In this document: positions 11,439 through 59,676 of the stretch, in pieces
How the letters are laid out: each line of letters begins with the position of its first letter
How positions within the stretch are numbered: the stretch's first letter is position 1
Made by a program: the position numbers and the translations under genes
Notes under the pieces: model-generated
Seen by the model: the letters and a program-made list of their open reading frames with translations, nothing else
Databases searched by the model: none
What the model was told of the DNA's origin: nothing
Source of the DNA: a virus
Taxonomy: Duplodnaviria > Caudoviricetes
Strand: one strand, 5' to 3'
DNA length: 63,192 bases
Virus record (IMG/VR): IMGVR_UViG_3300031566_000027
Coordinates: 1 to 63,192 of that record

Positions 11439-11458
11439 AGATATTAGAGGTTAAAGGT

Positions 11459-22091: not shown

Positions 22092-22300
22092 TGGATGAGG
22101 ACAGGCCCGTTTTTGGGTATCTCGAAAAACAAAAGGTGTTCGTTGCCGATCCTCACGATCTGGCCAGGGCCATCCGGTATGGTGATAAGTTTCACTCTGC
22201 CGATGGCCTGGCCTATTATTTCTGGAAAGGTATCACCTATGTAACGCCGGCGGATCAACCGCCTATGCTGCGTTATATCAAGGGCGGGCGGCCCGCTTAA
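22091..22300 (+). CDS. Hypothetical protein
   Basis: TGATG coupling; its stop overlaps the stop of the convergent giant gene (TTAA 22297-22300). Confidence 0.6.
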   Translation: MDEDRPVFGYLEKQKVFVADPHDLARAIRYGDKFHSADGLAYYFWKGITYVTPADQPPMLRYIKGGRPA

Positions 22301-25300
22301 TCCTCGAGGCGGTCCGCCATCCTTTGCTGTCGAACCCTTTTCATCGCCGCCCTGCTAACCTGGGGGCTCTGCCGCTGATAAACCTCTCGATACCACTTGA
22401 TAGCCCGTTCCAATTTTTCCGCCTCTTTTGCCGTTAGGCTTTTCCGGAATTTATGCCGTTGCATTTTTTTAACGCCGGATAGAGGATGGGCCATTGTAAT
22501 TGACCTTTTAAGGCCGGTGGTGGTGCCACCGTATTTATAGTAATAATCATACAAATATCTTTCAGCTGCCTTAAAATCGCCGTATTTCAACGCCTGTTTG
22601 TAATAATATAGGGCGTTGCCTTTGTTTGTCGGCTTGCCGCCGCCACTTTCCTCGCCAATCTTTTCTTTATAATCGATCACCATTTTCCGGGCGTCATAAT
22701 AGGCCTGTTCGCCGGGATCCGAATTATAAAGGACCAGACTTTGCAGATCGGCCATGAAATGCTCGGCCATGTTTTTACCGCGCCCAGGCCTGCCGATCAG
22801 GCGCTTGTAAATCTTATCAAGGCTGAACGTCCGGAGTATGTGCTCTGTGGTATCCCGTATGGGCCTCGGGCTAAACGGATCCGGAAAGGTCGTTTGCCCG
22901 GTTAAGGTTTCAAAAAGCATTTTTGGCTCGGGCCGGAGGGCGTGGATCCCCCGGGTCACAAACGCGATCCCGGCCTCTTTCATCATATCGAGAGGCGTCT
23001 TTTTGCCTTTGGCCAGATCCTTGATATCGTCCGGGAAGTCCTCGAGGCCGAAAAAGGATAGGGTATCTGATAACGCGCCCTGGAACCGAACGGACCGGAT
23101 CGTGCCGTCTGATCGCCGGCCTAAAATCAAATGCAGCTGCCGGCGCCCGGCCTCGCCAAACTCCTTTTCCTCGTCCGGGAATAAGAGCATATTCCATAAT
23201 TGGACCAGGGTATAAAGCATTGTGGCCTTGATTCCAAAACCGACCGCCTTTGTTACCGCCTTTTTAGATGCGATCGCAAGCGGCCGGGATCCGACCTCGC
23301 GGCCCTCATAGCGGACATTTCGCAACATATAGGCATACCGGGGGCTGTTAATCTCAATCCAAGACCAGAATGGCATCATGCGCTTGCGCAAGTATTGGCC
23401 GGATTGAGAGATATTCCCATAATCACCCACCAGTTCCCGGGCCAATTTCGCCGCCCGCTCGGTATCGTCTTTGATGGCGTCTATTTCAACCGGCTTGCTC
23501 GCGCCATAAACGGTTTTGCCGGCCGCTATTTCTTTTTGGAAGTGCCTAAAAGATGCCAATCGCAAGAGGTTCTCGCGCAAGGTTGTCAAATTTTTCGACT
23601 TTTCCCACCACCTAACGGCCAGATTGGGCTTTTCGCCCATGATAATGCCGCGCACAAATTTATCGAGGCCCATTTGTTTGGTGATATCCTCAACCTCTTG
23701 CACGCTCCATCCGGATCCTATCACGCCCAACTTACGCGCCTGATCGAGCTCCGCTTTTAGTTTGCCGGTTGCCTTGCCCTTGTCAAAGGCCCTGAGATCC
23801 CTAAGAGATTGTTTCATCCCCTTTAGAATTTTCGGGTTATAGGCCAGGACGATATCCAAGTCACCGCTCATATTGTTTAAATTGTATTTGAGCACGCGCA
23901 TTGGGTTGATTAGAATATACTGTTTCCAGGCCCGTAACGCCGCCTCTGATATCTGCCCCAGGGCCTTATCCGTTGGCGGAGGCCTGAAATTGTCTAAGGT
24001 TTCAGCCAGGCCGGTCGGCAACACCCAAACTAATTCCTGTCCTTTGGCCAACGCCTGTTTGACGTTTTCCTCTTTGAGCTCCGCCTCGCCGGCAACCACC
24101 GCCCTCAACATACCATCGGTGATCGTATTAACCCAAAACCCGCCTTTACCTGGTTCCGGTTTCCATTGTGTGTAGCCCTCGGGAACTAATTGCTGCCACG
24201 TTAAAAAGTTTTTGCCCAGGTCGGTCCGGATCTGGTTTTTGCGGGCATGAATGTTTTTAAAGATAGTGGCCGCCCAATTCGATCCGGGCTTGCCGGTTCT
24301 AACCAGGTAGGCCAGAAAATCAAACCATTTGCCGTCCGAGATCTCGCCCGGCGGATCGTAATTCTCCGGATCCTTTTTATTCTCGAAACTTTGGGCCAGG
24401 GATTGCACAACATCATCAAACCCGGAATCTATTGCCTCGAGCTCGCCTTTTGACGCCATCCGTTCGAGGGCCCCGCGGGCCATGCCGATCTTTTTACGAT
24501 ACGGGGTTAGGGGGTCTAACTCCTCATCGTTCATAACATCCTGGGCGGTCAAAGGAGTTTTAAGGGTTTTAGAAAGGCGTTCGGCTGCCTCCTGGTAAAA
24601 CCGTTCAAGATTCTTTTCAGTTGCCTCCTGGTGCAATTCCGGCTTGATATCAGCCATCTTCCGGAGGCGTTCTAAAACCCGGGCGGTTTCAAGTTGGGCT
24701 AATTGCTGCGATAGCGCGACAAATTCAGCCTCGATATATTCAGTATTATAATCAAGCAGGGATCCCTTGCGGGCAACCATCCATGGGCGCCAGTGTTTGC
24801 GAACGTCCGGGGATCCGGTTGCTACGTTGCCCTTTTTCTTATCTTTGGTTCCCCAATACTGTAAAACCTGGTGGTGGTAATAATCATCGTAATTTTTGAC
24901 CTCTTTTTTAAGGATCTTGTGCGCGACCAGGCCATCAACCATTTTAGAGATATATTTTTTCCGGGCGGCCAGTGCATCGCGGATCTCAGTATGCTCCGCC
25001 GCCAGGGCTTGAAACTTGCTATAAGCGGTTTCAACGTCCGCCACGGATTCAAAACCAAAAGGCAGGGTTTGCCCCTTAGTCAATAGGGCATCATTTAAAA
25101 GGCCTGATTGGATATCTCGCACCATATCGGCCAAAATGATATTGGTGGCGTAAATATCATAGGCATCAGATCCCAAATTCTCGATAAACCCGCGCATAAC
25201 ATCGGCGGTTTGCTGCTTGACAACCTCGGGTATCTCTTGATGGATGCGCAAGATATCGGCAAACTGCGCCCTGAGTTTGGGATCCTCGACCTGGTTTAGC

Positions 25301-28300
25301 GCCGGAAAATGCTGCCGTTGTGCTTTTAACTCCTCATATTTTTTGCCGGCAACATCTTTAAAGGCCGTTTTGCCTACGCCTTTGGCCGCGGCCATTCGCT
25401 TTTTTTGCTCGGGCGTTAGGATATGGCCATACTCGATTTTTTTACCCTTGCGCGGGGGTTCTTTCTTTTGCCTAAAGGCGGGGGCGGCGCCGGCGATCGG
25501 CTCGACCGCTTTGCCCGCTTTTGCAAACTGCCTGGCATTTGCGATCAGTGCCCGGATCTCTGCATCCGATAGTTTCAACTTGATACCCGCGGCCCGGATC
25601 CACTCCCGGATAGCCCGGACCATGCGATCAAACCACCTGGATTCAATCTCTTGCTGTGCCTGGCCGGCAAACCATTCCTCGGCGGCCTGGGCGCGGCCCT
25701 CGGTGGTTTTCATATCGAGGCCCAGGGTTGCCCCGATCGCGTCAACATCTCTCTTTTTGGCGATATAAAGATCCCTTAATACCGGGTAAATCTTATTACC
25801 CAGGATGCCCCGGATCCCATGATGGCCAAACGCCTCATGCAAAAGGGTTGTGGTGGTTTCCGCGTTTGATCCTAAATTTTCAGCGATCAGATAAATCGTA
25901 TTATTATAATAGGCGCCGGCGATCAGGCCCGCGTCTTTATAATTGGCTTTAAGATAGTCCTTAACGTCCTGGGGGAGGCCCTCTTGCGTGCGGTAGATCT
26001 TAACGTACGGGGCCCCTTTAGCCCATTTCACCCGGACGGCATCAACCATTGTTTTAACCTGCTCAACCGTTTGCGGGGTCGCCGGTGCAAATTTTTTGGC
26101 CCTGGGCGCCGGAGCTCCGGCCTCGCCCTTGATGGCTGCCGGCGGTTCGGGTTCATATCGGACCTCGGCCACAATATCATTGACTCCGCTATCATCCCGG
26201 TGCACGATATGATTTTCGCCCGCCACATCTTTTCCTAAATGCCAGGTGCCCGGGCCGGCAAGGCGTTCCACCATCAACCATAGTTCGGGGGCGATGCTAT
26301 AAAAATCATTCTCTGATTTAATCCAAAACTTAGTTGCCGCTTGCGGTGCATACCGGGTGCCCTTAAAAATTGCGTGTGCCTCCTCCGCGCTATTGGCGTT
26401 CTCAACCTCATAAAGCACCTGGTTCGTTTTGGCCTCTATGATATCCCAATAACCGCCGCCCTTATCCACGGCCTCAACCTCGGCCGCGGGCTCGATCGTG
26501 TACTCCTGCGGAGGCTCGATCTCTGGCCCGGGGTCCGCCTCGAATAGCGAGGCCGGCGCCGGCGAATTGTAAGCATACCCGGGATCGAATTTTTTACGTT
26601 GCTCCCCGAAAAAGGTTTTTAAATCGAAACTACCCTCCCGGACCATAAAGGCCGGCGGATCCGTGGAAAATTGCTCTTGCTTCGGCCAGATATACCCGCC
26701 TTGCGTTTTCCACTTATCTTTTTCGGCAAAATCTTCCAGTATCGGCACCGGGGCTTTATAGTCGCGGACCGGCCTGGCGCCCTCAACCGCCATACCGGGT
26801 GTGGCCGACATTTGTGCCTCAACCTCGGCCAAATCCTTTTCGGCCTGTGCGTACTCATTCTCTTTGGGCCATTTCGATATAGCAACCTCCTCGAGGGCCG
26901 GCTTTTTGCCGTTTAATTCGGCTATTTCATCCTGGGCCTCGCCTATAATTTTATCAAGGTTTGCTATAAAATTGGTAACGGATCTGGATACGTTCCCGGT
27001 GATTTCCGGCGGGGCCGCCTTTTTTTCGCCCAGGGCATCGGACCAATCGGCAAGAGCGTATGAATTTGAAGTAACGCCGTTTTTGAGAGTCAACCATCGC
27101 CGGGCCCTATCGCCGGCGGCACTTTCGATTAAGGCCTGGGCCTTAATCGGTTTGAATTTGTATTCCTTGACCGCTTTGGTTTTGGTTTTGCCATCTTTAT
27201 CTTTTTGCTCGTTGCCATCTTTATCGAGAACCGGGCGCTCGACCTCAACCTCCTCATGGGCGCCAAAAACGAGCGTTGGTTCGCTTTTTTCCTTATCCCA
27301 CCACTTGCCATCCTTAACCGGCCGGGTTTTTTCGACCGCCGCGGCCAGGGAGTCTGCGATCTTCTTGCCGTCTTTTTTAAGCACCAGGATATCATCGGAT
27401 CCGGTAAAGCGGACGGCGGTTATCGGTTCCATGATCGCCTTACTCTTTTCCTGGGTTGCGATTCGAGATTCGAGGGTTTCGATCCGGGTCGGCATCGCCA
27501 CAAGTTGATTTTTGGCATCCCGGACCGTATTAAGAAACGAACTCCGCTCGAGGCCCAATGTCCGGACCAAATCCATTAGCTCCGACTGTTTGCGCAATAG
27601 GGGATTGCCCGAGGCGTCCGCCTCCATTTCTTTCGCGCTCATCACTTCCTCGGAGATATCCTCGATAACATCGATATTGATATCTCCGGACAGTGCGGAA
27701 TGGAGCACCTTGCCCTTTTGGAAGATTTTCCCCCACCGGTGCGCGTCCACGCTCTTTTCGGTAATATAGTTAAAGATGCGCACGCCATCTTTATCGGTGT
27801 AGATATTGCCCGAGCGGATCCCGCGGCCGTTCCTTTGCTCCCAGGCCGAATAGTTCCACCAAACATCTAAATGGTGGATATCTGAAACGCGCTTTTGAAC
27901 ATTAACCCCGGTTCCGGCCTTTGTGGTGGATCCGATCAGCACCCGGACCTCGCCGGCGTTTACTTTTTTAAATAGGCGCCTGAGATTAATCGCCTTTTTC
28001 TCTTTATTTGAATGATCGGCATCGTGGATAAATGCAATTTGATTCTTAGGGATCCCTAATTTTATCAATTCATCTTTGAGGCCGTCATAGGTATTGAACC
28101 CAAGGCCCGAGTTTTCAAATGCGAACAGATCGTCTTCATACTCTTGCCTTTTTTCATCGCTCATGTTTTCGATCTGTTCATCTGTTTTGTACTTAAATGC
28201 TTTTAAATACCGGCCGGGCACGCCCATATCGGCAAACACCAGTTGAACGCCCTTGTCTTTTTTTTCTGCTTTCCATCGCTCGAAAATTTTACGCGAGGCT

Positions 28301-31300
28301 ACATAGATCTTAGAGTCCTTTTGCATTTTTGTGTTTGCATAAGGCCCCGGGGCCGGAATCCAAGTATCAGTTTTTGGATCCCACTTTTTACTATTTAACA
28401 ATCGCTGATCGATGGCAACCATGCTCATGTTTGAAATGATGCGCAACATATTATCCGGGCGGCCCTCGTATTCGGCATTTTTAGGATCCTGCTCTATCGC
28501 CTCGACTCGATCCCTCACCACGTTTTCAAAATAATCGATAACGTATTTATTGGGTTGGATGGTCATTCCGATTGGTTTCCCGCCATAAACTACTGGCCGG
28601 GCGATATCGGTATCCTCGGCTCGCACGCTATCGATGTTCTGAAATGCGGTTGCAAGCAAACGGCCGGCGTTCACGATACGCCTATTGGTTGTTACCGTTT
28701 TAAATTTCTGACCGGCGCCATCCCATTCAAGTTGGGCCCCGATATCTCCATAATTGGCAATCCATCTATCAAACCGCCATTGGCCCTGCCGTTTTGCCTC
28801 GTCTGGTTGCAGCGCCCTTTGCAGGTTGTAAAATTCAGCGATCGAGTTGGTGAGGGGGGTTCCGGAGGCCAATACGATGCCGTCCTTTTTCGCCTGAGTA
28901 GCATTTAACCATTGTGCTTTCCGGAAAAAGGCCTGGGCGGTCTTGCTGCCGGCGGGGTTTAGCCCGGTAATTCGATTAAGGCTTGTCGAAAACGGGATAT
29001 TTTTATAGGCGTGTGCTTCATCGACTATCATCAAATCCACGCCGATATCGTCAAAGTAAATTTCCTGGGCCTCTTTTGCCTCTGCAAAAGTTCCGGGAGC
29101 CTTTAACTTGGCCTCTAAGGCCAGGATCCGACCTTGAATATCTTGCTCTATGATCCGGGATCCGGCCGCCTTTGCCTCCTCGAGGACTTCCCGCAACTCC
29201 ATCAATTCCTCATCGATAAAGGTTTTTTCAGCCTCGGGGGATAAGGCGATCCGGTTTAGATCCTGCTGCCGCATGATGGCGATATCAAAATCGTTTAGCG
29301 CCATCTTTTGAAGTTGTTTCCGAGCTCGCTCTTTTACGGTGGATACCTGGATCGGCATTACGTTTGCCAGGGGGTAAAGCCTTTTAATTTCCTCAACAGC
29401 CTGGCCCATCGTGGAGTCGTTCAACGTAACGTAAAGAACCTTTTTCTTGCCCTTTAACCGTTTCGCCTCCATGCCGATCATGGCCATTGTCAAGGTTTTG
29501 CCGGCGCCGACCTCATGCGCAAGATAGAGATTGCCATTTCTTAAATACTGCCATACGGCGTTTACCTGATGATCGTAAAAAACCATCTTATCATCAACGC
29601 CCAACTCTTTAGCCTCGGCGGCCGTCAATACCTCCATGCTCTTGCCGGGAAATGTTAAATGGGCGCCATCATAGTGCGACCGAGTTGAGGTATTAACGAT
29701 ATCGTTAAAGCGGACCTGGGCCTCCTCGGCGCGGGCAGGATCGGCAAACAGCCACCGGTTAAATTCCGCCTGGATCTCTTGTAGCTTGGCCACGGCGCCG
29801 GCCGTTGCCACTTCATCAACATAGACTTTCTTATCCACTTTATAGGTGACAACCGGCACTTTGCCCGCCAGGGCATCGGCCATCAACTTAAAAAAGCTCG
29901 CCCTGGGAGTGCCCCAAACAGACTTGGCCTCAACGCTAGTCTTGTACTTCTCGATATCGCGTCTAGTTTGGGCCTTGCTGCCGCCATATCTCGGGCCGTT
30001 AAAGGTAAGATTCCAGATCCCGGTGAATGGATTTAATTCTAAAACAGGCCGGAGCTCGTTACCAATTTTCAGCTTTTCTTTTATGAAATCCGCGATATGT
30101 GCGCCCTTTAACCAGGACGCGCCAATTCGCGCCGTTATTCGGTGCGCGGGGATATCATCAGGCAAGGCGGCCTCTAATAGCTTTACGTTCCGCTCATATT
30201 CCGGATTATCAGCGGCCATGGATCTGGCCACTTTCAACTTTCGCCGCACGTTGCCGGCCAGGTATTCATCCATCGTTTCAAGGATCCCGGTTTCCGGGTT
30301 CTCGATAACTTTATCGAGCACGCCTTTTAATACGGTATCCGGATCGGTGCCCCGGAGCTTGGCCATGTAATCAAGGTTTGGATATCCAAATTCATCCAAG
30401 GCCATGCTTAGGGCGTCATGGTCGGTGTTCGCAAAATCGGGCCGCTTTTCGGTTCCTACAATCTTTTTGGTGAATAGGTCCGCGAGTTTTGTGACTTTTT
30501 CGGTATCGGGATCATAGGTTTCGAGGGTTGTAACCCACGCGGCATCAGTGAGGGATACATAAATTTTAAGGTTTTTAGGATCATTCAGAGGGCCAAACTT
30601 TTTTACAAATTGATTGTAGGCCTTTTTTAATTCTTTCTGTTCGGCCTTGATCTCTGCCTCGGGCAGGTTTTGCTTTTGCGCTCTTAAAGTCGCCCGCACC
30701 TGGTCCAGGATCTTAATGTATTGCCGGCCAAGTTTATTAGCCCTCATTTCAGCGGGCGTGGTGTTCGGCCACACTTCCTCCTGGCCGTCCACCTTTTCTG
30801 AAACCTGGTCCTTATCGTTTAGATAAAGCCCGCCCTCTTTTACCGTTCCGGGTGCAGATATTATATCATCGAGGGATAGATCCGCTTTTACGACCTCGGT
30901 TTCAACTATGCCCACCGGGAACGCCGCGGCCTTTTCGGCCAGGGTCCGGGCGATATTATCATCGATTTTAACAACGCGCAGTTTATCAGCGCCCCATCGA
31001 TCCTGTACTTTTTCAAGGCTGCCGGCGATCATATCCGGGTGCTTGATAAAGTAATCGTTGTAAATAATATCGTTGCCCTCATCGACCGCCTGGGCGGTCC
31101 AAATATCGGGCTCAATCCCTTTAAATTCGCTGCCCTCAATGTTTTTACGGAATACCAGGATATCGGTAACAACTCCGGTGGCGCTGTAAATGGCCGATGG
31201 CAGGCGGATGGCGCCAACAAATTCGGCCTTTTGGGAAAATTCCTGTAAATGGCCGCCGCCCTTATCCATCGTGTTCGAGGTGGTTATGGCCATCGCCAAA

Positions 31301-34300
31301 CCGCCCGGGGAGGTAAGATCGAGCATTTTATTAAGGTAATAGTTATGGAGTTTGTGCCCGGCCTTGTTATGTTTCGTATCGGACGGCGAATAGTTAGCAA
31401 ACGGCACATTTGTTATGGTGAGATTGTATCGATTCAGGGGCTTTTTAGAATCCTCAAACCCCTGATGTTCGATAGAGGCTTTTTCGTATAGAGCTCGGGC
31501 GATCCGGGATGAAAGGCCATCCTTTTCAACACCCTGGACGGAAACGCTTTCCGCTAATTCATCTGGCATCGTACCGGTGAAAACGCCGTTTGCCCCAAAG
31601 GCCGGGTCTAAAACCTGGCCGCCGGTGAATCCTAACCGTTGTGCCAGTTTCCACATAAACCGCGCAACCGGCACCGGTGTATAATAAGACGATACGGAGG
31701 ATTTTTCTGCATCCGAAAGCTCCTCATCGGTCATTTCTGCCCTAACCAGTTCGGCGCGGACCGCCCAGGCATCTTTAGGACTCCACGCAAACAGTTCTGA
31801 CATACCGCCCCAACCAGTATAGCCGGCCAGGATATCTTTTTCTTTTTGGGTTGCGGATCGTTGCTCCGCCTCGACTTGATTTAATACTTTGAGTGCTGCA
31901 AGATTGGCATTAAAGCGGTCATTTACATTTGATGCAGAATTAAGCGATTCATCAGTTATTCGGTAGTTTCCGGGGGTAGCAGGATATGCTCCTGTATCAC
32001 TATCTCCCTCGCCGCCATCGGTTTCACCCCTCTCCTTACCAGGTCGGCCATCGCCTCCTCCGCTTTCCCCACGCTCTCCCTGATCTCCTGGTTCAACCTC
32101 CCCCGCCTCTCCAACCCCTTGACCAGGGCGGGTAGGTATTTCGTCCAGTGCGTCCTCGCCAGTTTCTCCCAACTCAGATTCATCTTGGGCCCCCTCTTGA
32201 ATGTAAGTGGCGGTATCACCGTCATAAATGAAATTTGTGAGCTTATAGCCAATTATATCATCGGGGTGCAACATTGTCAAGTATCCGACCGCCCCGGCTC
32301 CCCCTTGCCCCTCCTCTTTATAGGATTTATCATAGGCAGAATATCCATCCGGTTGCATCATCGGCCCCAGGCCGGTAGCGTCATATCGATACCAGTAATA
32401 GCCGTCCGGGGATTGCTCTGAGGACCAAATTGCTTTATACCGCTCCTCGATCTGATCCAATAAGGCTTGTTTTTCCTGTTCTAACCTCTCCGCCTGTATG
32501 GTTTCAAAGTCGACATAATCATCTTTCATGCTCGGGTTGCCGTCCGCATCCCACTGAACGCCATCGAGGAAATGCGAAATCTTTTCGGCAAATTCCTCGC
32601 GTTCCTGGCCGGCAGGATAAACAAGATGAGATCCTACAACGCCGGCGCCGCCGATCCGGCCGGCCTCCACGAAATCATTTACAAGATAATTGTTTGTGCC
32701 GGGCAGGGTATCATAAACCCAGGCCTCGAACGCTCGCGCCCACATTTCCTCGCGGCGGGCGGTATATACGGGGTCCAGGGCCAACGCCGTTTTATAATAA
32801 TCGGTCCGTTTTTTAACCGCGTCCTTGTATCGCCTGGATACTTCCTCTTTTATAAAATCAAGCCTGGTTTGCCCTTTTTTAAGCACCAGGCGTTTCATAA
32901 ATCCACTTTCCGGATCCATGATCTCATCGGCCAAACGCGGCCCGGCCTCCCAATCGTACCGGTCCATAAAGGCATCAATCAGACTTTCGAGCTTGGTTTC
33001 AACGTCTGAGGGCGCCTGCGCGTGGAAACCGTGACTCCATTCATGCGCAAGGGTGCCATCGCCATTATCCCGGGTAAAGTTGATGGTCCGTAGATCCGGG
33101 AAATAAGCGGCTGCCGCGCCCTTGGCTTTGTGCCCCAGGTTAGCAAATTGGATGGCCAGGCCATTTGCCAGGCCCATCGCTTTATCGGTTCCCGTTTGGA
33201 TCACCGCGGCCAGATCCTTAAAGGCATCAAAGGCGGCGTTTACTACCCGGTGGCGTTCTGCCTGATCAATCCATCCGGCAGTACCAAAACCCACGCCGCT
33301 AAAGCCAAACGGATCCTTTAACTCCTCGGTTTTTGTCAGTGGTTGACCTTTGCGGTAATCCGGCAAGCCGGTTCTGATAACCTCTTTATTCTTTTCCCGG
33401 TTGTGGATATCGATCTCGGAAAGCAGGATATCGTTTTCCTGGGCGAGATACTTTTGCCATCGCTCGGTTAAAAACTCGTAAAGGGTCTTTTGGTAGCGAT
33501 TGACGATAAATTCCTGGTTCCACAATTCGGCGTTAAGCAGATTCTTATCAATGTCGTAAAAATCCGGGTAAACACCATCACCCATGACGCCCGGAGGAAT
33601 AAATAGCCGCTGTAAATCTCCAACTGCATCCATTATGGTTAGTTTGTTAGAAAAAGTGTTGACCACCTTTTCCATGTGTTTGCCGTATTGAGTGGCCAGG
33701 TCTTGCAGTTCGCTAATCTCATGGCCGGCATCTAACCAGTTTTGCACTCGGGTTTCCCACTTTTTCTCGCTGCGATAACTGTGGCTCCCGAGTGACGCCT
33801 CGCGCTCAACGTAGTCCTTAAAGGTGGCAAACATCTTTTTTGCCGCGTTTCTGAACCGCGGCAGGCCATAAGAGGCGCCCTCTGGAAAATCAATATTCCA
33901 GATATTAGCAGGGGCCATCTTATCACCGATAATCTTAATCTGAGTTTTGGGCGGTTTGCCCTGGATCCCCCTGGCTAAATCCTCCGGATCGTACACATAG
34001 CCCACGTTTTGAAAATTACCCAGGGCCTTTTTTGCCGCGGCGATGGCCGCCTTAGTTTCTTGAATGAATCGCCTGAGATATGGCTTTATTCCGTTGCCAA
34101 ACCGTTCAACAAAGAAATTGAAAAATTCTTTTAAGGATTTTCCGGCCGACTTCATGTGTTCATAGGCCGATTGGAATTTGGGTTTTGCCTTTGCGTAGGT
34201 ATCTTCATCAAAGGTGACGCCCATTGATAGCTTGGTAGTTCCACCGAAAAGATCATAAAGACCGGATAGGGCATCCTCGGCGCCGGCTAAACCCTCGGCC

Positions 34301-37300
34301 GCCCCCTCTTGTATAATCTCGGATAATGGTTTGGCCGGTTTGGGTTCCTTTGCCTTGCGCGGGGCCCGCTCTTTTGGCGGAGCTTTCGGGCCCTTGGTCG
34401 GCTTTTCAGCCCCGGTTAAATTATCGATCTCTGTTTTTGCATCGGCTAAAGATTTGGTGTTAATAATCCGGGCGTTATCTTTTGATACTATAAATTCACC
34501 GGAGGTCAATGACGCTGTAATTAAATATCCTTTATATGCGGTTGTATCCCCGGGCTTTAATTCGGCTTTCGGCGCCGCCGGTTCTTCCTCGCCGGTTTCA
34601 TCGAGCATTTTATCAATTTCTTCATCGGTAAGGTTTTCGATCTCGGCCTCTATATCGGGCGGCGGGGGCGGGGGGCCTGGCATTACAAACTCGCCGCCAT
34701 CTAAACCCCGGAGCTCATCGAGCTCAACTTTAGCGCGTTCCGGCGTTCCGCTAACCGTATGGGCCCAATATTTACCCTTATCCTTGCCCCGCTTAATCGG
34801 CTTAACGTCCGAGATATCAACCCAATCGCCCTTGATTTTTGCCTGGCCGATAGCTGCCGGCTTTGGTTCCTCATCGGCGGGCGGGGCCCCGGCCTCTGCT
34901 ATTCGTTCCTCGTCTGGTGTCGGCCTGTCATATTCCCATACACCATAAGGCCCAAAATCCTGGGCCGTTACAGTGTCTTTTGTTGTTTCAACTTGATCCT
35001 CTCTTTTGGCTATTTCGGCGGCCTCGTCTGCGTCTATATATCGGCCGGTGCTTGTAACAAATCCCCTGTGCACATCTTCATATTTACCCTTATACCCTCG
35101 ATCTTCGGCCTCTACCATGGCCGAGGGGTGGCTAGTTGACTCGATTATGGTGCCATCTGGCAATCGAATTGCCGCCGCCATAATTTTCTCAACCTCTGCC
35201 GGTGCCTCTTTTTTGGCCTTTTTCCTGGCACCCTTTTCGCCCTTTCCGGTGCTTTCCAGGGGCGCTGCGGGTGCTGCCGCCGGTGCTAACGCCGGGTGAT
35301 CCTCGTACTCTTTATAAAATTCGATCTCATTCTCCCGGGCCTCCGGAACCACTGCTAATTCGTGAACTAACTCCCAGGTCAAATCCGCACCCTCAATATC
35401 GTGATTATTGGGGGCGGTATAATACCGGCCATCGTCCAGGGGATAAACCATCTTGCCGGCGAAATCTCCAACTCCATCGGTTACGGCGGTGGTATCGAGT
35501 TCCTTTTCGGGCAACCTTTCATAATCAAGGTGGTCGGATAAGAAATCTCTAATGCTTTTGGCACTTCCCTCCTCGAACGTCCTGCCGTGATATTCGGCCT
35601 CTCCGATATCGGTTTCGGCGTCCACCTGGGCGGCGGCGCCTCCGAGCTCCGCCTCCATATCCGCCGGCATATCGCCCTCCATCGGGCCTCCGATGAGGGT
35701 TTCGTATTTGGTTTGATCGAGCTTGGCCCTGGTGAATTTATCAAGGCGGTCAAATTGTTCGCGGATCTCGGGAACATCATCAACATAAAAGTATTTTTCA
35801 ATCCACTTTTCGAGCATTTCCCGTTTGGTGGCCAGGTCGGCGGTATATTGCAGATCCGGGAATCCGACCATAACGGAAACATCATCAAAGTATTGAGCGA
35901 GGATTTTCTTTAATCCGCGATCGTGCCCCTCTAAGATCGCTCGGTTTTCCTCGGTGGGCGCCCCCGGGGGCATGGTTACAGGTTTCGCTTTTTTGGCCTT
36001 TTTGCGAGCACCCTTTTCGCCCTTGCCGGTGCTTTCGAGAGGCTTGACCGTTTCGCCTGTTTTCTCTTTTTCCCATTCAACCGCCCGGCGGATAAGGTCA
36101 ACCCGGTCCATTTCCGGCCGGATCTGCTCCTCGGATAGGCTTAGAATATCATGGAAAACCTTGAAATCGAGATCATCCTCGATGGCCCATTCGCCCTGTT
36201 GCCTGGCAGCATCCACCGCCTCACCCAGGGCGCCACTTTCAACCCTGGTTATAAACTCATCGACAAACCCATCGGGCATCCCTTGATCTTTGGCGATCGC
36301 CCGGATCTGGTCCTCGGTGAGGGTGCCAGGCATTTCGGTATATTCATCACCCATTCGATCGGTATAATCCGGGGCGATATCCTGATACTGCTCGAGGGGC
36401 AATAAGGCGCCCTCATTGGCTTTTTGGGCCGCCCTGGCGGAATAAATCTCCGGCTTTAAGGTTCGGCCGGCCTGGGATCTCAGGCGATTGGCGTCCGCGA
36501 TAATTTCAACGCTCGGGGATAGGCGCCGCAATTCATCCACCATTTCCTGAAATTGCTTTCTTTTCGGGCTTATGCCTAACAGGTGGACCGTTTTAGGCGG
36601 GTTTTCATGCTTAAAAATATCCTCATATTCGGAGGGTTGGATCGGTTGCTTATTCGAGGGAAACCCGGCGATAGCCCGATCGAGGTTCTCCGGATCCATA
36701 ACCTTTTGCATGGATCCCCAAACACCGCGCAAACCTGGCTCATAATCATCGGCCGGCCGGTGCACTGGCAGTATGATCCGGGTTCCCAGGGCGGCGATCT
36801 CGTTAATCTCCTTGCGGTATTTCTCGGCCATCGTGTACGACTTAACAGGATCCCCAATAACATCGGGCGCCACCACCACCAGGTTTTTAGCACCCTCGCC
36901 GGCCGCTTTTGCGATCCGCAAGTAATTTTTGAGGACCGCCGGCCAATTAACCTCGCTACCGTTCATAAAGGCGCCAAACGCCCCGGAATCGATAAAAACC
37001 TGGCCGCCATCCTTTAAATACTGGATCAACTCTTTTTCGCCGTTTTTCGAGAGCTCCGCGATCTCAACGCCGATCGGAACGCCGGCCGCAATATGACCTT
37101 TCATATCTGAGATCCGGCTCGCGCCGCTATAATAATTTGTTACCTCTTTCGGTATCGGGAGGCCACTTTCAACCGTCCGCACCGGGGCGATCCTTGGGCC
37201 GCCCTCGGGCTCAACCTTTTTCTTAGGTGGCAACGTGGATGGCATCGTCCGGACCGGTGCACGCCTGCCGCCGCCCTCGGGTTCCACGGCGGGTTTTTTA

Positions 37301-40300
37301 AAGCTATCGCGCAAGGCCTCGAGTTCTTTGAGCGGTGGCCATACGGCCATCATTTCAGCGGTCATGCCCTCGCCGGCGAGCTCCGCTTTCATATCATCGA
37401 TAGCCTTTTGTGCCTCTTGATATGTTTCGGGTTCGACCGCCTCGACAACCTTAACCGGGGGGGCCGCCGCTTTTGCCTTTTTTCTCGCACCCTTTTCGCC
37501 TTTTCCTGTGCTTTCGGTCGGCTTAACGGTTTCAACCCTGCTTGGTTTGACCGCTTTTTTAAGTTTTGTTTTCTGCCCCAGGGTAGCGATATCCGCCTGG
37601 ATGAGGCCTAATTTTTCCTTTGGTTTCATCTTCGGATCTTTAATCAGATCCAAAACACTGGCCCTTTGCTCCGGGGTTAGGCTTTTGATTAAAGCATCTA
37701 ATTGCTTTTGCGGTCCGCCTGGCGCCGGGCCCTCTTTTGCATAGGCCATTATAATGGTGTCAAGAAATTCCTGCGCCCTGGGGATCGTCTTATGTGCGCG
37801 ATCGGATATGGTAAAGGTGGCGCCTTTGGCCGGTCCACTGGTAACTGTCATTTGCAGACCGATAGGCCGCTCATCCTGATAGATAACATTATCAAAACGA
37901 ACATTCGCGCCCGCCTGCTTTCCCATTTTTTTGGCCAGATCATCAAATACTTTCCGTTTTGTGGTCGGAGTGATCCGGGTTTTCGCCGGCGGAATTGATA
38001 TTTCCTCGATAACTCCGCCGGGCCTGGGCGCCCGCTTGCCTTTCCAGATCTCCCGGACCTGGGCTATCTGCTCTTTTTTCGGCTTTGGGGGCCGTTTCCA
38101 GGGGGGTTCTGTTCGAGAGGGTGCTTTCCTGGGGCCGCCGGCTGCCGGCGGGGTTACTCCCCAAATCCGGCCTACCTGGGCCGCCTTGCCCTCATCCATG
38201 CGGCCTTTGGCAGTGGTCGGCATGGCCGCCCTGGGCTTTTTGGGAAGTGGGGGCGGTGCTGTGATTTTAGACTCAACCGACTTGACGCCTAATGGCTCAA
38301 AAGACCACTGAATCAATTCTTTATCGGTTTTATCCTTTGAAAATTCCGCGTTATGGTCGATGATCGGGCCGCCATCCCTCGAGATCATGGAGCTCGATCC
38401 GTCCGGATGCCTCACCACGGATACAACAAACTGGCCGGCGTCCTGGGTATCGAGGTCATAATCATTCGTATCTGTAATGTCTTTAATCCCGGCGGCCACT
38501 TCCTCATCGGTGAGCTCGGTAGTTTCGGGGGCCGGTTCGGCCTTTTTTTTGGCCGGCTTTTTAACCTCCGGGCCGGCAACTGGTTCCGGTTCCGCCCCCG
38601 CCGCCGCCTCGAGCTCCTCCTCGGTAAATTCTGCCGCGGCCTCCTCGGCATCGAGGGAATCAGAACCCAGGTTCCGCCGCAACTCTTGCTCTACCTTTTT
38701 ATCGGCTGCCGGCGGTTTCTCCGGGCGGCCGGTCAATATTTCCTCGGCCGTCTGGTCCGGAGCATCTTTAAGCATATCCTCGGCGGTTTCTGGTTTTGGC
38801 GGGGTTTTCATATCCTCGCCGCCCTGGCCGCTTAAAGCCACCATGCCGCCGCCCATAAACGCGCCGGCAACAAGACCGGAGGCCGCGGCCTCTGCCACGC
38901 CCTCGCCTATATCTTTATCCGGATCAACCAGGGCCTTGGTGGCCAAGTTGGTTAATACGGTTTCCATCGCACTTTGGGGCGTTTCCTCGATCAAACCCTC
39001 GCTTACAACACCCCATAGGATTTTCCGCCATAATCGATCGCCCTCTAACCCGGCCAACAATTTACCCATGAAACCGCCGGAGGGGGCGCCCAGGGCGCCG
39101 GTGGTAAGGCCACTGGTAACGCCGACCATCACGCCGCCGGATAGGGCCAAAATCTCTTTTGTAACTCGGTCGCGGTCCTCCGGTGGGATATCCGGCGACA
39201 TACTTTCATAAATCTTTTTGTACGCGGGCGATTTTTTAAAGGCCTCTGCTTTTTGGCCCTTGATCTGCTCGTAAACCCCCTGCATATTCTGAGCGGCGGC
39301 CGTCATGCCCTCGCCGGCCGCACCGCCATAGACGCCGGCCGCAAACTGAACGCCATATTTTTTAGTCATCCACTGAAAAAGAGGCAGGCCTATTACTTCG
39401 GGCCCATATTTAAGGGCGGTTTTGGTTAGCATCTGAGTAAACTTGGCGGATCCGCCCATGCCGACCACGGTGGATGGAATGGATTCAACCACCATGCCTA
39501 ATATTTTTGCCGGGCTTTTTGCTCCCTCCCCCACGGTGTAACCAAAAAAACCGTCCTTATCCTCTTTCAAGAGGTTTTTGGCCATTTCCTTTTTCATGGC
39601 CGGGGTTATTCTGCGATCATAAAAATCACTGGCCTCGCTCGAATAGTCCTCTACTAAGCTGCCAAAGGTGGCCGCGGCCCATTTTTCACCTCGCTTTAAT
39701 TGATTTACATCGCCCCGCACCGCGCCGATGATCTTTTCAGCCTGGCCGGCATACCAAACCGGATCCACCAGGTTCATAACCATGCCGGCCGCCTTTCCGA
39801 AATCGGCGGATCCGCGGCCTAATAATTTAAGATAATCCGCATATTCGGTGCCATCGTCCTGATCGATAACGGGCTTTTGTGCGTTCGGAGTAGGGTCAAA
39901 TTCACCCGGGATCGTTTCCTCTAATCCCTCGAGCGGTGGAGGTTCGGACGGGATCGAGGCCTCCGCCTGGCGAGATCGCTTTAACTCGGCTACTTCCGGG
40001 GCCACTTCCGGGGCCGGGGCCTCTTGCCCCTGCCTGGCCACCTGCAAATCCTCGACCATCGGCCGCCGTTGGGCCTGGGGGTCGGTCGGTTGCACCGGCT
40101 TAGAAAGATCCTCGGCCTCGCGTTGTTTTTGGCGTTCGGCAAATTCCTTGCCAGGGCTACTGCCGGCCTGCAAAACATCACCGATCCGCGCCAATACGCC
40201 TTGTTTCTTTTTCTTTACCGGAGGGCCTACCTCGAATTTGGATTCCTCATCCTCATCGGTGGTCTTTTTCTGTCCTACCAGGGGGCCTGCATAGAATCCC

Positions 40301-40302
40301 AT
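22297..40302 (-). CDS. darB: 6001-aa DarB-like polyvalent internal virion protein (N6-MTase, SF2/SNF2 helicase, HExxH domains, TGT-like domain)
   Basis: AAGAGGA RBS; last gene of the virion block after two ejection-like genes; motifs are listed in the domain features below. Confidence 0.88.
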   Translation of the reverse strand: MGFYAGPLVGQKKTTDEDEESKFEVGPPVKKKKQGVLARIGDVLQAGSSPGKEFAERQKQREAEDLSKPVQPTDPQAQRRPMVEDLQVARQGQEAPAPEVAPEVAELKRSRQAEASIPSEPPPLEGLEETIPGEFDPTPNAQKPVIDQDDGTEYADYLKLLGRGSADFGKAAGMVMNLVDPVWYAGQAEKIIGAVRGDVNQLKRGEKWAAATFGSLVEDYSSEASDFYDRRITPAMKKEMAKNLLKEDKDGFFGYTVGEGAKSPAKILGMVVESIPSTVVGMGGSAKFTQMLTKTALKYGPEVIGLPLFQWMTKKYGVQFAAGVYGGAAGEGMTAAAQNMQGVYEQIKGQKAEAFKKSPAYKKIYESMSPDIPPEDRDRVTKEILALSGGVMVGVTSGLTTGALGAPSGGFMGKLLAGLEGDRLWRKILWGVVSEGLIEETPQSAMETVLTNLATKALVDPDKDIGEGVAEAAASGLVAGAFMGGGMVALSGQGGEDMKTPPKPETAEDMLKDAPDQTAEEILTGRPEKPPAADKKVEQELRRNLGSDSLDAEEAAAEFTEEELEAAAGAEPEPVAGPEVKKPAKKKAEPAPETTELTDEEVAAGIKDITDTNDYDLDTQDAGQFVVSVVRHPDGSSSMISRDGGPIIDHNAEFSKDKTDKELIQWSFEPLGVKSVESKITAPPPLPKKPRAAMPTTAKGRMDEGKAAQVGRIWGVTPPAAGGPRKAPSRTEPPWKRPPKPKKEQIAQVREIWKGKRAPRPGGVIEEISIPPAKTRITPTTKRKVFDDLAKKMGKQAGANVRFDNVIYQDERPIGLQMTVTSGPAKGATFTISDRAHKTIPRAQEFLDTIIMAYAKEGPAPGGPQKQLDALIKSLTPEQRASVLDLIKDPKMKPKEKLGLIQADIATLGQKTKLKKAVKPSRVETVKPTESTGKGEKGARKKAKAAAPPVKVVEAVEPETYQEAQKAIDDMKAELAGEGMTAEMMAVWPPLKELEALRDSFKKPAVEPEGGGRRAPVRTMPSTLPPKKKVEPEGGPRIAPVRTVESGLPIPKEVTNYYSGASRISDMKGHIAAGVPIGVEIAELSKNGEKELIQYLKDGGQVFIDSGAFGAFMNGSEVNWPAVLKNYLRIAKAAGEGAKNLVVVAPDVIGDPVKSYTMAEKYRKEINEIAALGTRIILPVHRPADDYEPGLRGVWGSMQKVMDPENLDRAIAGFPSNKQPIQPSEYEDIFKHENPPKTVHLLGISPKRKQFQEMVDELRRLSPSVEIIADANRLRSQAGRTLKPEIYSARAAQKANEGALLPLEQYQDIAPDYTDRMGDEYTEMPGTLTEDQIRAIAKDQGMPDGFVDEFITRVESGALGEAVDAARQQGEWAIEDDLDFKVFHDILSLSEEQIRPEMDRVDLIRRAVEWEKEKTGETVKPLESTGKGEKGARKKAKKAKPVTMPPGAPTEENRAILEGHDRGLKKILAQYFDDVSVMVGFPDLQYTADLATKREMLEKWIEKYFYVDDVPEIREQFDRLDKFTRAKLDQTKYETLIGGPMEGDMPADMEAELGGAAAQVDAETDIGEAEYHGRTFEEGSAKSIRDFLSDHLDYERLPEKELDTTAVTDGVGDFAGKMVYPLDDGRYYTAPNNHDIEGADLTWELVHELAVVPEARENEIEFYKEYEDHPALAPAAAPAAPLESTGKGEKGARKKAKKEAPAEVEKIMAAAIRLPDGTIIESTSHPSAMVEAEDRGYKGKYEDVHRGFVTSTGRYIDADEAAEIAKREDQVETTKDTVTAQDFGPYGVWEYDRPTPDEERIAEAGAPPADEEPKPAAIGQAKIKGDWVDISDVKPIKRGKDKGKYWAHTVSGTPERAKVELDELRGLDGGEFVMPGPPPPPPDIEAEIENLTDEEIDKMLDETGEEEPAAPKAELKPGDTTAYKGYLITASLTSGEFIVSKDNARIINTKSLADAKTEIDNLTGAEKPTKGPKAPPKERAPRKAKEPKPAKPLSEIIQEGAAEGLAGAEDALSGLYDLFGGTTKLSMGVTFDEDTYAKAKPKFQSAYEHMKSAGKSLKEFFNFFVERFGNGIKPYLRRFIQETKAAIAAAKKALGNFQNVGYVYDPEDLARGIQGKPPKTQIKIIGDKMAPANIWNIDFPEGASYGLPRFRNAAKKMFATFKDYVEREASLGSHSYRSEKKWETRVQNWLDAGHEISELQDLATQYGKHMEKVVNTFSNKLTIMDAVGDLQRLFIPPGVMGDGVYPDFYDIDKNLLNAELWNQEFIVNRYQKTLYEFLTERWQKYLAQENDILLSEIDIHNREKNKEVIRTGLPDYRKGQPLTKTEELKDPFGFSGVGFGTAGWIDQAERHRVVNAAFDAFKDLAAVIQTGTDKAMGLANGLAIQFANLGHKAKGAAAAYFPDLRTINFTRDNGDGTLAHEWSHGFHAQAPSDVETKLESLIDAFMDRYDWEAGPRLADEIMDPESGFMKRLVLKKGQTRLDFIKEEVSRRYKDAVKKRTDYYKTALALDPVYTARREEMWARAFEAWVYDTLPGTNNYLVNDFVEAGRIGGAGVVGSHLVYPAGQEREEFAEKISHFLDGVQWDADGNPSMKDDYVDFETIQAERLEQEKQALLDQIEERYKAIWSSEQSPDGYYWYRYDATGLGPMMQPDGYSAYDKSYKEEGQGGAGAVGYLTMLHPDDIIGYKLTNFIYDGDTATYIQEGAQDESELGETGEDALDEIPTRPGQGVGEAGEVEPGDQGERGESGGGDGRPGKERGETDGGEGDSDTGAYPATPGNYRITDESLNSASNVNDRFNANLAALKVLNQVEAEQRSATQKEKDILAGYTGWGGMSELFAWSPKDAWAVRAELVRAEMTDEELSDAEKSSVSSYYTPVPVARFMWKLAQRLGFTGGQVLDPAFGANGVFTGTMPDELAESVSVQGVEKDGLSSRIARALYEKASIEHQGFEDSKKPLNRYNLTITNVPFANYSPSDTKHNKAGHKLHNYYLNKMLDLTSPGGLAMAITTSNTMDKGGGHLQEFSQKAEFVGAIRLPSAIYSATGVVTDILVFRKNIEGSEFKGIEPDIWTAQAVDEGNDIIYNDYFIKHPDMIAGSLEKVQDRWGADKLRVVKIDDNIARTLAEKAAAFPVGIVETEVVKADLSLDDIISAPGTVKEGGLYLNDKDQVSEKVDGQEEVWPNTTPAEMRANKLGRQYIKILDQVRATLRAQKQNLPEAEIKAEQKELKKAYNQFVKKFGPLNDPKNLKIYVSLTDAAWVTTLETYDPDTEKVTKLADLFTKKIVGTEKRPDFANTDHDALSMALDEFGYPNLDYMAKLRGTDPDTVLKGVLDKVIENPETGILETMDEYLAGNVRRKLKVARSMAADNPEYERNVKLLEAALPDDIPAHRITARIGASWLKGAHIADFIKEKLKIGNELRPVLELNPFTGIWNLTFNGPRYGGSKAQTRRDIEKYKTSVEAKSVWGTPRASFFKLMADALAGKVPVVTYKVDKKVYVDEVATAGAVAKLQEIQAEFNRWLFADPARAEEAQVRFNDIVNTSTRSHYDGAHLTFPGKSMEVLTAAEAKELGVDDKMVFYDHQVNAVWQYLRNGNLYLAHEVGAGKTLTMAMIGMEAKRLKGKKKVLYVTLNDSTMGQAVEEIKRLYPLANVMPIQVSTVKERARKQLQKMALNDFDIAIMRQQDLNRIALSPEAEKTFIDEELMELREVLEEAKAAGSRIIEQDIQGRILALEAKLKAPGTFAEAKEAQEIYFDDIGVDLMIVDEAHAYKNIPFSTSLNRITGLNPAGSKTAQAFFRKAQWLNATQAKKDGIVLASGTPLTNSIAEFYNLQRALQPDEAKRQGQWRFDRWIANYGDIGAQLEWDGAGQKFKTVTTNRRIVNAGRLLATAFQNIDSVRAEDTDIARPVVYGGKPIGMTIQPNKYVIDYFENVVRDRVEAIEQDPKNAEYEGRPDNMLRIISNMSMVAIDQRLLNSKKWDPKTDTWIPAPGPYANTKMQKDSKIYVASRKIFERWKAEKKDKGVQLVFADMGVPGRYLKAFKYKTDEQIENMSDEKRQEYEDDLFAFENSGLGFNTYDGLKDELIKLGIPKNQIAFIHDADHSNKEKKAINLRRLFKKVNAGEVRVLIGSTTKAGTGVNVQKRVSDIHHLDVWWNYSAWEQRNGRGIRSGNIYTDKDGVRIFNYITEKSVDAHRWGKIFQKGKVLHSALSGDINIDVIEDISEEVMSAKEMEADASGNPLLRKQSELMDLVRTLGLERSSFLNTVRDAKNQLVAMPTRIETLESRIATQEKSKAIMEPITAVRFTGSDDILVLKKDGKKIADSLAAAVEKTRPVKDGKWWDKEKSEPTLVFGAHEEVEVERPVLDKDGNEQKDKDGKTKTKAVKEYKFKPIKAQALIESAAGDRARRWLTLKNGVTSNSYALADWSDALGEKKAAPPEITGNVSRSVTNFIANLDKIIGEAQDEIAELNGKKPALEEVAISKWPKENEYAQAEKDLAEVEAQMSATPGMAVEGARPVRDYKAPVPILEDFAEKDKWKTQGGYIWPKQEQFSTDPPAFMVREGSFDLKTFFGEQRKKFDPGYAYNSPAPASLFEADPGPEIEPPQEYTIEPAAEVEAVDKGGGYWDIIEAKTNQVLYEVENANSAEEAHAIFKGTRYAPQAATKFWIKSENDFYSIAPELWLMVERLAGPGTWHLGKDVAGENHIVHRDDSGVNDIVAEVRYEPEPPAAIKGEAGAPAPRAKKFAPATPQTVEQVKTMVDAVRVKWAKGAPYVKIYRTQEGLPQDVKDYLKANYKDAGLIAGAYYNNTIYLIAENLGSNAETTTTLLHEAFGHHGIRGILGNKIYPVLRDLYIAKKRDVDAIGATLGLDMKTTEGRAQAAEEWFAGQAQQEIESRWFDRMVRAIREWIRAAGIKLKLSDAEIRALIANARQFAKAGKAVEPIAGAAPAFRQKKEPPRKGKKIEYGHILTPEQKKRMAAAKGVGKTAFKDVAGKKYEELKAQRQHFPALNQVEDPKLRAQFADILRIHQEIPEVVKQQTADVMRGFIENLGSDAYDIYATNIILADMVRDIQSGLLNDALLTKGQTLPFGFESVADVETAYSKFQALAAEHTEIRDALAARKKYISKMVDGLVAHKILKKEVKNYDDYYHHQVLQYWGTKDKKKGNVATGSPDVRKHWRPWMVARKGSLLDYNTEYIEAEFVALSQQLAQLETARVLERLRKMADIKPELHQEATEKNLERFYQEAAERLSKTLKTPLTAQDVMNDEELDPLTPYRKKIGMARGALERMASKGELEAIDSGFDDVVQSLAQSFENKKDPENYDPPGEISDGKWFDFLAYLVRTGKPGSNWAATIFKNIHARKNQIRTDLGKNFLTWQQLVPEGYTQWKPEPGKGGFWVNTITDGMLRAVVAGEAELKEENVKQALAKGQELVWVLPTGLAETLDNFRPPPTDKALGQISEAALRAWKQYILINPMRVLKYNLNNMSGDLDIVLAYNPKILKGMKQSLRDLRAFDKGKATGKLKAELDQARKLGVIGSGWSVQEVEDITKQMGLDKFVRGIIMGEKPNLAVRWWEKSKNLTTLRENLLRLASFRHFQKEIAAGKTVYGASKPVEIDAIKDDTERAAKLARELVGDYGNISQSGQYLRKRMMPFWSWIEINSPRYAYMLRNVRYEGREVGSRPLAIASKKAVTKAVGFGIKATMLYTLVQLWNMLLFPDEEKEFGEAGRRQLHLILGRRSDGTIRSVRFQGALSDTLSFFGLEDFPDDIKDLAKGKKTPLDMMKEAGIAFVTRGIHALRPEPKMLFETLTGQTTFPDPFSPRPIRDTTEHILRTFSLDKIYKRLIGRPGRGKNMAEHFMADLQSLVLYNSDPGEQAYYDARKMVIDYKEKIGEESGGGKPTNKGNALYYYKQALKYGDFKAAERYLYDYYYKYGGTTTGLKRSITMAHPLSGVKKMQRHKFRKSLTAKEAEKLERAIKWYREVYQRQSPQVSRAAMKRVRQQRMADRLED
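25500..26050 (-). other. Zincin-like metallopeptidase (MPTase-type) domain of the giant protein
   Basis: AGAYYNNTIYLIAENL......TLLHEAFGHHG...AAEEWFA; boundaries approximate. Confidence 0.7.
27650..29600 (-). other. SF2 (SWI2/SNF2-like) helicase domain of the giant protein
   Basis: HQVNAV, LAHEVGAGKT, IVDEAH, ASGTPLTN, GTGVNVQ, EQRNGRGIRSGN; boundaries approximate. Confidence 0.92.
31000..31970 (-). other. N6-adenine DNA methyltransferase domain of the giant protein
   Basis: YTGWGG, SYYTP, VLDPAFGANGVF (motif I), ITNVPF (motif IV), GAIRLP, TDILVFRK; boundaries approximate. Confidence 0.9.
32560..33350 (-). other. LPD1-like HExxH domain of the giant protein
   Basis: FGFSGVGFG..W, AAAYFP....IN.TR.NGDGTLAHEWSH, Y.ARREEMWARAFEAWV, YPAGQER; boundaries approximate. 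Confidence 0.75.
35212..37534 (-). repeat. Three copies of the linker ESTGKGEKGARKKAK (about 35212-35262, 35992-36054, 37471-37534)
   Basis: Identical 15-aa peptide with synonymous DNA differences between copies. Confidence 0.9.
36470..37135 (-). other. TGT/DpdA-like (guanine transglycosylase-fold TIM barrel) domain of the giant protein
   Basis: VFIDSGAF, VVAPDVIGD, ILPVH, VHLLG, IIAD in the order expected for TGT-fold barrels. Confidence 0.7.
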
Positions 40303-59310: not shown

Positions 59311-59676
59311 TTAAAAGGTGCGCATCCGGCGTTTTTTACGGTTATTGGTTATAACTTTCTCTCGATCCATCGCCCCGGCCATGCCGGACCATCTTTTGAC
59401 TCCGCCCCCTGGGGCCATTGGGTTAGACAAACCGGCGCCCTTGCCCGGTGATAACAAGGGCGCCGGCGTCTGTGCTCCGCCATTATCAGGCGTTTCCGGC
59501 GGGGGTTCCATCCGCGCTGATGGCGATGGCGGAGCTACCGCGGCCGCGGCCGGTCCGGAGTTCTGCCCGGTGGTATCCGGGTCAAGGGGTTCTATTTTTG
59601 TGCTTAAAGCTGCCCGCTTAATGGGGTTCCTATCTTTTTTCTTTGCCCCCAGGCGCCTTATTCCTTGTATTGGCAT
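59311..59676 (-). CDS. Pro/Ala-rich basic hypothetical protein
   Basis: Overlaps the portal 3' end; low complexity. Confidence 0.5.
   Translation of the reverse strand: MPIQGIRRLGAKKKDRNPIKRAALSTKIEPLDPDTTGQNSGPAAAAVAPPSPSARMEPPPETPDNGGAQTPAPLLSPGKGAGLSNPMAPGGGVKRWSGMAGAMDREKVITNNRKKRRMRTF

Follow-up and report, generated by a model that had tools for sequence, protein, structure and literature searches.

DpdA has been proposed as a signature protein of viral 7-deazaguanine DNA modification, and the subfamilies in print are bDpdA and DpdA1–4 (PMC10516641). In S. Montevideo, the bacterial DpdA that serves the Dpd restriction-modification system uses Asp95 as general acid/base and Asp256 as nucleophile, reads the base edge with Asp130 and His181, and holds the 7-substituent of the base in a Gly-rich loop, the three Asp being invariant across both the tRNA-guanine transglycosylase (TGT) and DpdA families (PMC10164549). 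Phage 9g encodes a DNA guanine transglycosylase, DpdA1 (gp003, KJ419279), and genes of its type adjoin folE, queD, queE and gat-queC. Singleton-DpdA phages, described in 2019, carry a DpdA-like gene without synthesis genes, and the proposal is that their host supplies the base (PMC6884629). The window analysed here is the whole of the Caudoviricetes record IMGVR_UViG_3300031566_000027 (63,192 bases, linear, CheckV 100%), 28.5% of which is occupied by a single open reading frame (ORF) for a 6001-aa, DarB-like polyvalent protein. By fold, homology and conserved active-site residues, residues ~1054–1447 of this chain, which lack both a zinc site and cysteine, belong to a branch of the DpdA/TGT N-glycosyl-transferases that had no name before; within this known superfamily of enzymes, subfamily and architecture alike are new.

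The best sequence relative of the window domain was 9g DpdA1 (hhalign probability 94.5–95.2%). The two share the DSGAF, xDxxGD, LPxxH and HxxG motifs and the nucleophile Asp, at only ~20–30% identity in aligned columns, and a complete zinc site is lacking in both (for 9g DpdA, PMC5699537). They differ in size (a barrel of ~225 aa against a 317-aa protein), in the Gly-rich pocket loop, which the window domain appears not to keep (in a low-confidence stretch of the alignment), and in setting, the window domain being embedded in its giant chain without the synthesis genes that 9g-type genes adjoin. Like the singleton-DpdA phages, the window phage lacks those genes, but singleton DpdAs are free-standing whereas the window domain is a cargo domain. 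Moreover, the family profile touched the singleton DpdA of phage 7-11 in the DSGAF region only (E 1.5e-5) and did not match Orion, so that the family stands apart from the published singleton group. Bacterial DpdA (PDB 7UI4; 413 aa, with DpdA-specific insertions and a partner ATPase, DpdB) is the product of a chromosomal defence gene rather than cargo of a mobile element, and the PADLOC hidden Markov models gave no match to the window domain.

A preliminary description of this DNA, made from the sequence alone, had placed a TGT/DpdA-like base-exchange domain at 36470–37135, equivalent to residues 1056–1278 of the giant protein. The motifs on which it relied were all found in frame, on the minus strand and within one ORF, with DSGAF exactly where it had been reported, and Pfam located both of the companions it had named, a helicase and a methylase, in the same chain (Table 1). 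Its interpretation of the domain is supported in part.

Table 1. Features of the giant protein and its DpdA-like module, with positions in the window. Conservation is counted over 145 aligned domains.
Feature	Residues	Coordinates	Strand	Basis or conservation
Giant ORF, polyvalent (DarB-like), 6001 aa, 0 Cys		22297..40302	(-)	ORF call, open under table 11
Conserved DpdA-like module (barrel, linker and helical tail)	1054-1447	35962..37143	(-)	conserved in L004
TGT/DpdA-type (beta/alpha) barrel	~1060-1285	36448..37125	(-)	
Helical extension past disordered linker	~1325-1415	36058..36330	(-)	extended AF2 model, pLDDT ~65-86
VFIDSGAF (DSGAF, 1105-1109)	1102-1109	DSGAF 36976-36990	(-)	
APDVIGD	1145-1151	36850-36870	(-)	
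LPVH	1178-1181	36760-36771	(-)	
HLLG	1240-1243	36574-36585	(-)	
IADAN	1268-1272	36487-36501	(-)	
Predicted general acid/base (DSGAF), aligned to 9g D72	D1105	36988..36990	(-)	D 143/145, 2 gaps
Predicted base-edge Asp (APD), aligned to 9g D114	D1147	36862..36864	(-)	D 145/145
Predicted base-edge His (LPVH), aligned to 9g H141	H1181	36760..36762	(-)	Q 136, H 7, P 2 of 145
His of HLLG, aligned to 9g His196	H1240	36583..36585	(-)	H 145/145; low-confidence part of alignment (relaxed hhalign)
Predicted nucleophile (IADAN), aligned to 9g D215 (SCDSS)	D1270	36493..36495	(-)	D 144/145, 1 gap (relaxed hhalign)
15-aa linker repeat, copy 1, upstream of module	930-944	37471..37515	(-)	
15-aa linker repeat, copy 2, C-terminal module edge	1423-1437	35992..36036	(-)	
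15-aa linker repeat, copy 3	1683-1697	35212..35256	(-)	
LPD1 (large polyvalent protein-associated domain 1)	~2512-2580	32563..32769	(-)	Pfam PF18796, E 2.3e-10
N6 DNA methylase domain	~2862-3056	31135..31719	(-)	Pfam PF02384, E 2.2e-8
Superfamily 2 (SF2) helicase: ResIII/SNF2/DEAD N-lobe; Helicase_C	~3573-3769; ~4102-4165	27808..29586	(-)	Pfam PF04851, PF00176, PF00270, PF00271

A 241-aa query (residues 1060–1300) run against 1.84 billion representatives recovered 746 proteins at E≤1e-3, 290 at E≤1e-10 and 2 at E≤1e-30. Given this number of homologues, and the coincidence of the motif residues first noticed with conserved columns of the family, the motif set lies well beyond chance. The family profile (A1, 90 sequences) aligned with phage 9g DpdA over 78 columns at default hhalign settings (probability 94.5%, E 8e-8) and with a profile of 25 9g-like DpdAs at 94.7%; at low mact the alignment with 9g DpdA extended to 171 columns (95.2%), pairing DSGAF with DSGAF, APD with LDG, LPVH with CFH, AIAGFPS with ITLGGLVG, VHLLG with VHGFG, and IADAN with SCDSS. 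Phrog_887, ‘queuine tRNA-ribosyltransferase’, matched both the window domain (E 1.5e-7) and 40/90 family members (best 2.4e-12), and the family profile in turn matched, at E 1e-6 to 1e-9 and in the DSGAF–APD region only, 13 viral-contig proteins that are genuine DpdA1s (E 1e-29 to 1e-185 with the 9g-type profile). The DpdA4 model, DUF6610, gave E 0.13 on the window domain and reached 1/90 members (E 0.0065).

Against a single E. coli Tgt sequence the family profile was not significant (hhalign probability 3.4%, the 25 aligned columns being the DSGGF motif), and Pfam TGT (PF01702) gave no match at E≤10 on the domain or at E≤1 in six frames. That the domain might act on host tRNA in the manner of a canonical TGT, modifying position 34 or a different guanine and so retuning or sabotaging translation early in infection, is improbable in view of this sequence affinity to phage DNA-acting DpdA. 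A canonical TGT has a zinc-binding Cys/His subdomain, whereas the window module, like the whole giant protein, is devoid of Cys; it likewise has no PUA subdomain, and the domains fused alongside it are DNA enzymes.

The AlphaFold2 (AF2) model of the domain (predicted local distance difference test, pLDDT, 91; predicted template-modelling score, pTM, 0.87) alternates strands and helices, and its top fold matches were all triosephosphate isomerase (TIM) barrels. The preliminary description had proposed comparison with TGT and DpdA by profile and by Foldseek, and the two diverged: the DpdA profile match was obtained, but Foldseek against the PDB put generic TIM barrels first (tagatose epimerase, dihydrodipicolinate synthase (DHDPS) and UVDE; template-modelling (TM) score ~0.5), with no TGT on top. 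Because of this ranking, identification as a TGT/DpdA-like domain rests on DpdA profile homology and the ordered motifs, with which the fold is consistent. In the VIA fold comparison Cap10 (9ntn_B) scored 11.2 and QTRT2 10.4, and aldolase and mannanase chains tied to within 1 Z. Action on an N-glycoside outside nucleic acids, whether by undoing or imitating the Cap10-type conjugation of deazaguanine to a CBASS cyclase or by cleaving a nucleotide-derived immune signal, appears very improbable. Among viral structure models the best match was a member of the family that bears the annotation ART-PolyVal (TM 0.82), and the best differently named matches were phage ‘queuine tRNA-ribosyltransferases’, from E 3.7e-4.

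The Foldseek ranking, the tie between aldolases and TGTs in VIA and the mere 78 columns of the default alignment would all be accommodated by a generic TIM barrel without TGT function, or by an inactive scaffold, whose motif matches are convergent. Either is nevertheless highly improbable, since six motifs occur in the same order and with matching spacing in 9g DpdA, none of the 145 domains (gaps aside) departs from the three Asp and the one His, an independent PHROG profile also matches, and the family profile finds true DpdA1 proteins.

Conservation was counted over 144 representatives and the window. Carried across the 9g alignment, Asp95, Asp256, Asp130 and His181 of S. Montevideo DpdA correspond to D1105, D1270, D1147 and H1181 respectively. 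The preliminary description had proposed a check of both catalytic Asp; in the alignment, D1105 and D1270 pair with 9g D72 and D215. H1240 aligns with His196, named as the conserved DpdA histidine (PMC6884629), and G1243 was present in 145/145 family domains. Judged from these residues the active site looks intact, and the domain is very probably an active glycosyl-transferase of the DpdA superfamily. At the Gly-rich beta6-alpha6 loop, which holds the 7-substituent, LGGLVG of 9g is set against AIAGFPSN in the window and (G/A)xPxN in the family, although alignment is of low confidence here.

The family is a large branch without a name, whose members occur inside giant polyvalent proteins, standalone, or on plasmids. 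Among the best 150 matches, 93 were of ≤450 aa, 25 of 451–1500 aa and 32 of >1500 aa, the longest having 7054 aa. No model in Pfam, NCBIfam or PADLOC covers the domain: a Pfam search at E≤10 gave nothing beyond noise (GDSL lipase, DUF6610, NNH2), as did NCBIfam and the PDB sequence searches with single protein and profile; no Pfam family occurred in more than one of the 90 alignment members, and a PADLOC scan gave nothing relevant to the domain. Public names of 26 near-length homologues were ‘hypothetical’ in every case, or lacking. By tblastn, the window domain matched none of 50,697 GenBank phage records but did match 52 plasmid records (Pseudomonas 31, Vibrio 6, Shewanella 5, Cupriavidus 4, and others). 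The plasmid homologues are labelled hypothetical, ‘LPD1 domain-containing’ or, in one case, ‘phage tail protein’. The pKF707 homologue is standalone, between kleE/trfB/parAB and hypothetical genes, with an annotated antirestriction gene ~7 kb away; that of Cupriavidus lies within a 2174-aa LPD1 protein, in a gene block that includes traW.

In IMG/VR, 111 stretches encoded a relative, and 80 loci were kept. The ORF was of at least 1500 aa in 27 of the 62 near-full-length loci, of 650–1500 aa in 6, and complete and ≤650 aa in 26. Neighbour clustering identified no conserved neighbour gene in the 26 standalone viral loci; two large clusters were discarded as antisense shadow ORFs over the gene itself. 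Ten mid-size carriers comprised one with Mom and ART-PolyVal, two with an N6/Eco57I DNA methylase and seven with no other Pfam domain, and four larger carriers comprised two with LPD38 (one of these also with GGDEF), one with AAA_34/ResIII and one with nothing. In P0024 residues 445–540 form a GGDEF diguanylate cyclase, and in P0003 residues 151–482 are Mom-like plus ART-PolyVal, each in one chain with the domain. No description of the family was found in the literature searched, though the supplementary lists of PMC6884629 (76 singleton-DpdA phages) and PMC10516641 could hold members.

The complete genome bears out the earlier remark that no folE, queD, queE or queC is visible, six-frame searches for TGT, QueC, PTPS/QueD, GTP cyclohydrolase I and radical SAM returning nothing at E≤1. 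A PAPS-reductase-like protein of the PP-loop ATPase family is encoded at 11429–12250 (+) (phrog_424, E 1.4e-29), with no QueC match in the six-frame Pfam search. Family and DpdA1 loci were separated by match extent before QueC was sought, in 50 of the 80 loci. At E≤1e-3, no QueC was found in 36/37 viral records with a full-length family domain, the remaining one being a 186-kb record with a partial, 26.9-bit match ~42 kb from the domain; the DpdA1-bearing viral records had QueC in 13/13 cases (E 1e-49 to 1e-75).

The near absence of queC from the family, the retention of the catalytic Asp triad beside an apparently remodelled 7-substituent loop, the want of a conserved neighbour at standalone viral loci, and the very different effectors held by giant carriers (ART-PolyVal, GGDEF, AAA_34) would suit the same covalent chemistry with another outcome. 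The enzyme would then be a glycosylase releasing guanine or a host 7-deazaguanine mark, its intermediate resolved with water, or else an exchanger for another purine analogue, and would serve to damage or unmark host DNA (turning a Dpd-type system on its own chromosome, for example) or to install an undescribed mark. We regard this as rather unlikely: the domain retains the residues with which DpdA reads the base edge (Asp plus His/Gln), pointing to a guanine-shaped ligand; fusions to Mom and DNA methylases suit protective marking better than attack; and we know of no hydrolytic DNA glycosylase with the TGT fold.

Cysteine was absent from the giant protein (0/6,001 residues), compared with 78/8,959 residues (0.87%) in the 23 other ORFs of the phage. 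This was not peculiar to the window: in the representative set, 32 giant carriers (>1500 aa) had 74/130,329 (0.06%) and 18/32 had no Cys at all, compared with 388/32,123 (1.2%) in 93 standalone homologues. The absence is consistent with loss of a Cys-based zinc site, and from composition we infer that it reflects selection tied to passage outside the cytoplasm, by ejection or transfer. The giant gene comes after genes matching phrog_8003 (virion structural protein) and phrog_511 (internal virion protein). Further cysteine-free ORFs of the structural block, all on the minus strand, lie near the giant gene at 40375–41556 (393 aa) and 41571–42623 (350 aa), and at 49229–51508 (759 aa) and 57708–58625 (305 aa); these too may be ejected, or may be external proteins of the virion.

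P1 DarB is the prototype of polyvalent proteins. Those described by Iyer et al. in 2017 (PMC5512222) are likewise single huge chains, and here LPD1, N6_Mtase, ResIII/SNF2/DEAD, Helicase_C and the DpdA-like barrel are combined in one, other carriers of the domain adding LPD38, ART-PolyVal, Mom, GGDEF and AAA_34. Over the first 2000 residues of the giant protein Pfam gave no match. ‘TGT’, ‘queuine’, ‘TIM barrel’ and ‘glycosylase’ are absent from the main text of PMC5512222, so the DpdA-like domain is not among the domains named there, and the available portions of two later surveys in the same line (PMC9503650, PMC7824862) do not link DpdA to polyvalent proteins. The preliminary description had supposed the architecture to be uncharacterised, and the literature search agreed, finding no link between DpdA and polyvalent protein, DarB, leading region or anti-restriction.

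The giant protein was compared with that of a related viral contig, L004 (L004 5342–20719). Residues 1054–1447 were 57.5% identical over 398 aa, and the two proteins also have segment 701–925 and the C-terminal 780 aa in common, but the methylase/helicase middle of the window protein had no BLAST match in L004 at E≤1e-5. Since L004 keeps the module, the N-terminal segment and the C-terminal part while the middle is unmatched, the module can be regarded as a movable cassette, and the pattern of matches points to cassette exchange within one gene between two related phages. A Lys/Gly-rich 15-aa linker occurs in three exact copies in the window protein, copies 1 and 2 bracketing the module, and is missing from the L004 protein; the copies may be processing sites or DNA-binding hooks.

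Elsewhere the genome encodes head, portal, small terminase, internal-virion, SbcCD-like and replication-initiator genes, and no tRNA genes were found in it. A changed genetic code was rejected as the source of the giant ORF, whose frame is open under table 11, the sole odd stop being a TAG in the portal gene. That gene (59630–61903, minus strand) is interrupted at residue 281 of the joined frame, its N-terminal part covering positions 10–204 and its C-terminal part positions 242–632 of phrog_156. The TAG could be a sequencing error, a readthrough site or a recoding site; the giant ORF is free of in-frame stops of this kind.

The reading that we favour, with a probability of roughly 45%, is that the domain is a delivered DNA guanine transglycosylase which would use a host-made 7-deazaguanine base to mark and protect incoming DNA; its activity, target, base and injection are what we infer. 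D1270 would attack C1' of (deoxy)guanosine, as in DpdA, the leaving guanine being protonated by D1105 and the base edge read by D1147 and H1181, and the covalent intermediate would be resolved by a free 7-deazaguanine-type base, presumably made by the host because the phage encodes no synthesis genes. The enzyme would travel as protein with the DNA, in one chain with the DNA methylase and helicase, and would mark the incoming genome alongside that methylase before any phage gene expression, making it an anti-restriction device; standalone plasmid copies would do the same after conjugative entry. Use of a host pool is feasible, since 9g dpdA alone in E. coli yielded 790 dPreQ0 per 10^6 nt (PMC6884629). 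Weighing against delivered marking are the singleton-DpdA phages, which had no modification or just 0.02% of G modified (PMC6884629), and the changed pocket loop, if its low-confidence alignment is right.

It is possible, though doubtful, that the family represents the first DNA hypermodification enzyme carried as protein cargo, arriving by ejection out of the capsid or synthesised immediately from entering plasmid DNA, which would draw on the recipient's 7-deazaguanine pool or an undescribed purine and forge marks before restriction acts, loss of the zinc site and of Cys being an adaptation to passage through tail and periplasm. Among the marks forged by such a cargo enzyme might be the one that Dpd-type systems read as ‘self’. 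The family, a sizeable branch of its superfamily, keeps the catalytic residues yet is parted from base-synthesis genes, and is found in putatively delivered phage multi-enzyme proteins and on plasmids; absence of cysteine from giant carriers may be a simple sequence marker of ejected or transferred proteins. If the domain is active, it would provide a compact (~225 aa), zinc-free and cysteine-free transglycosylase scaffold, would offer an explanation for the puzzling class of ‘singleton DpdA’, and would add a pre-made base-exchange enzyme to the known routes by which invading DNA escapes restriction.

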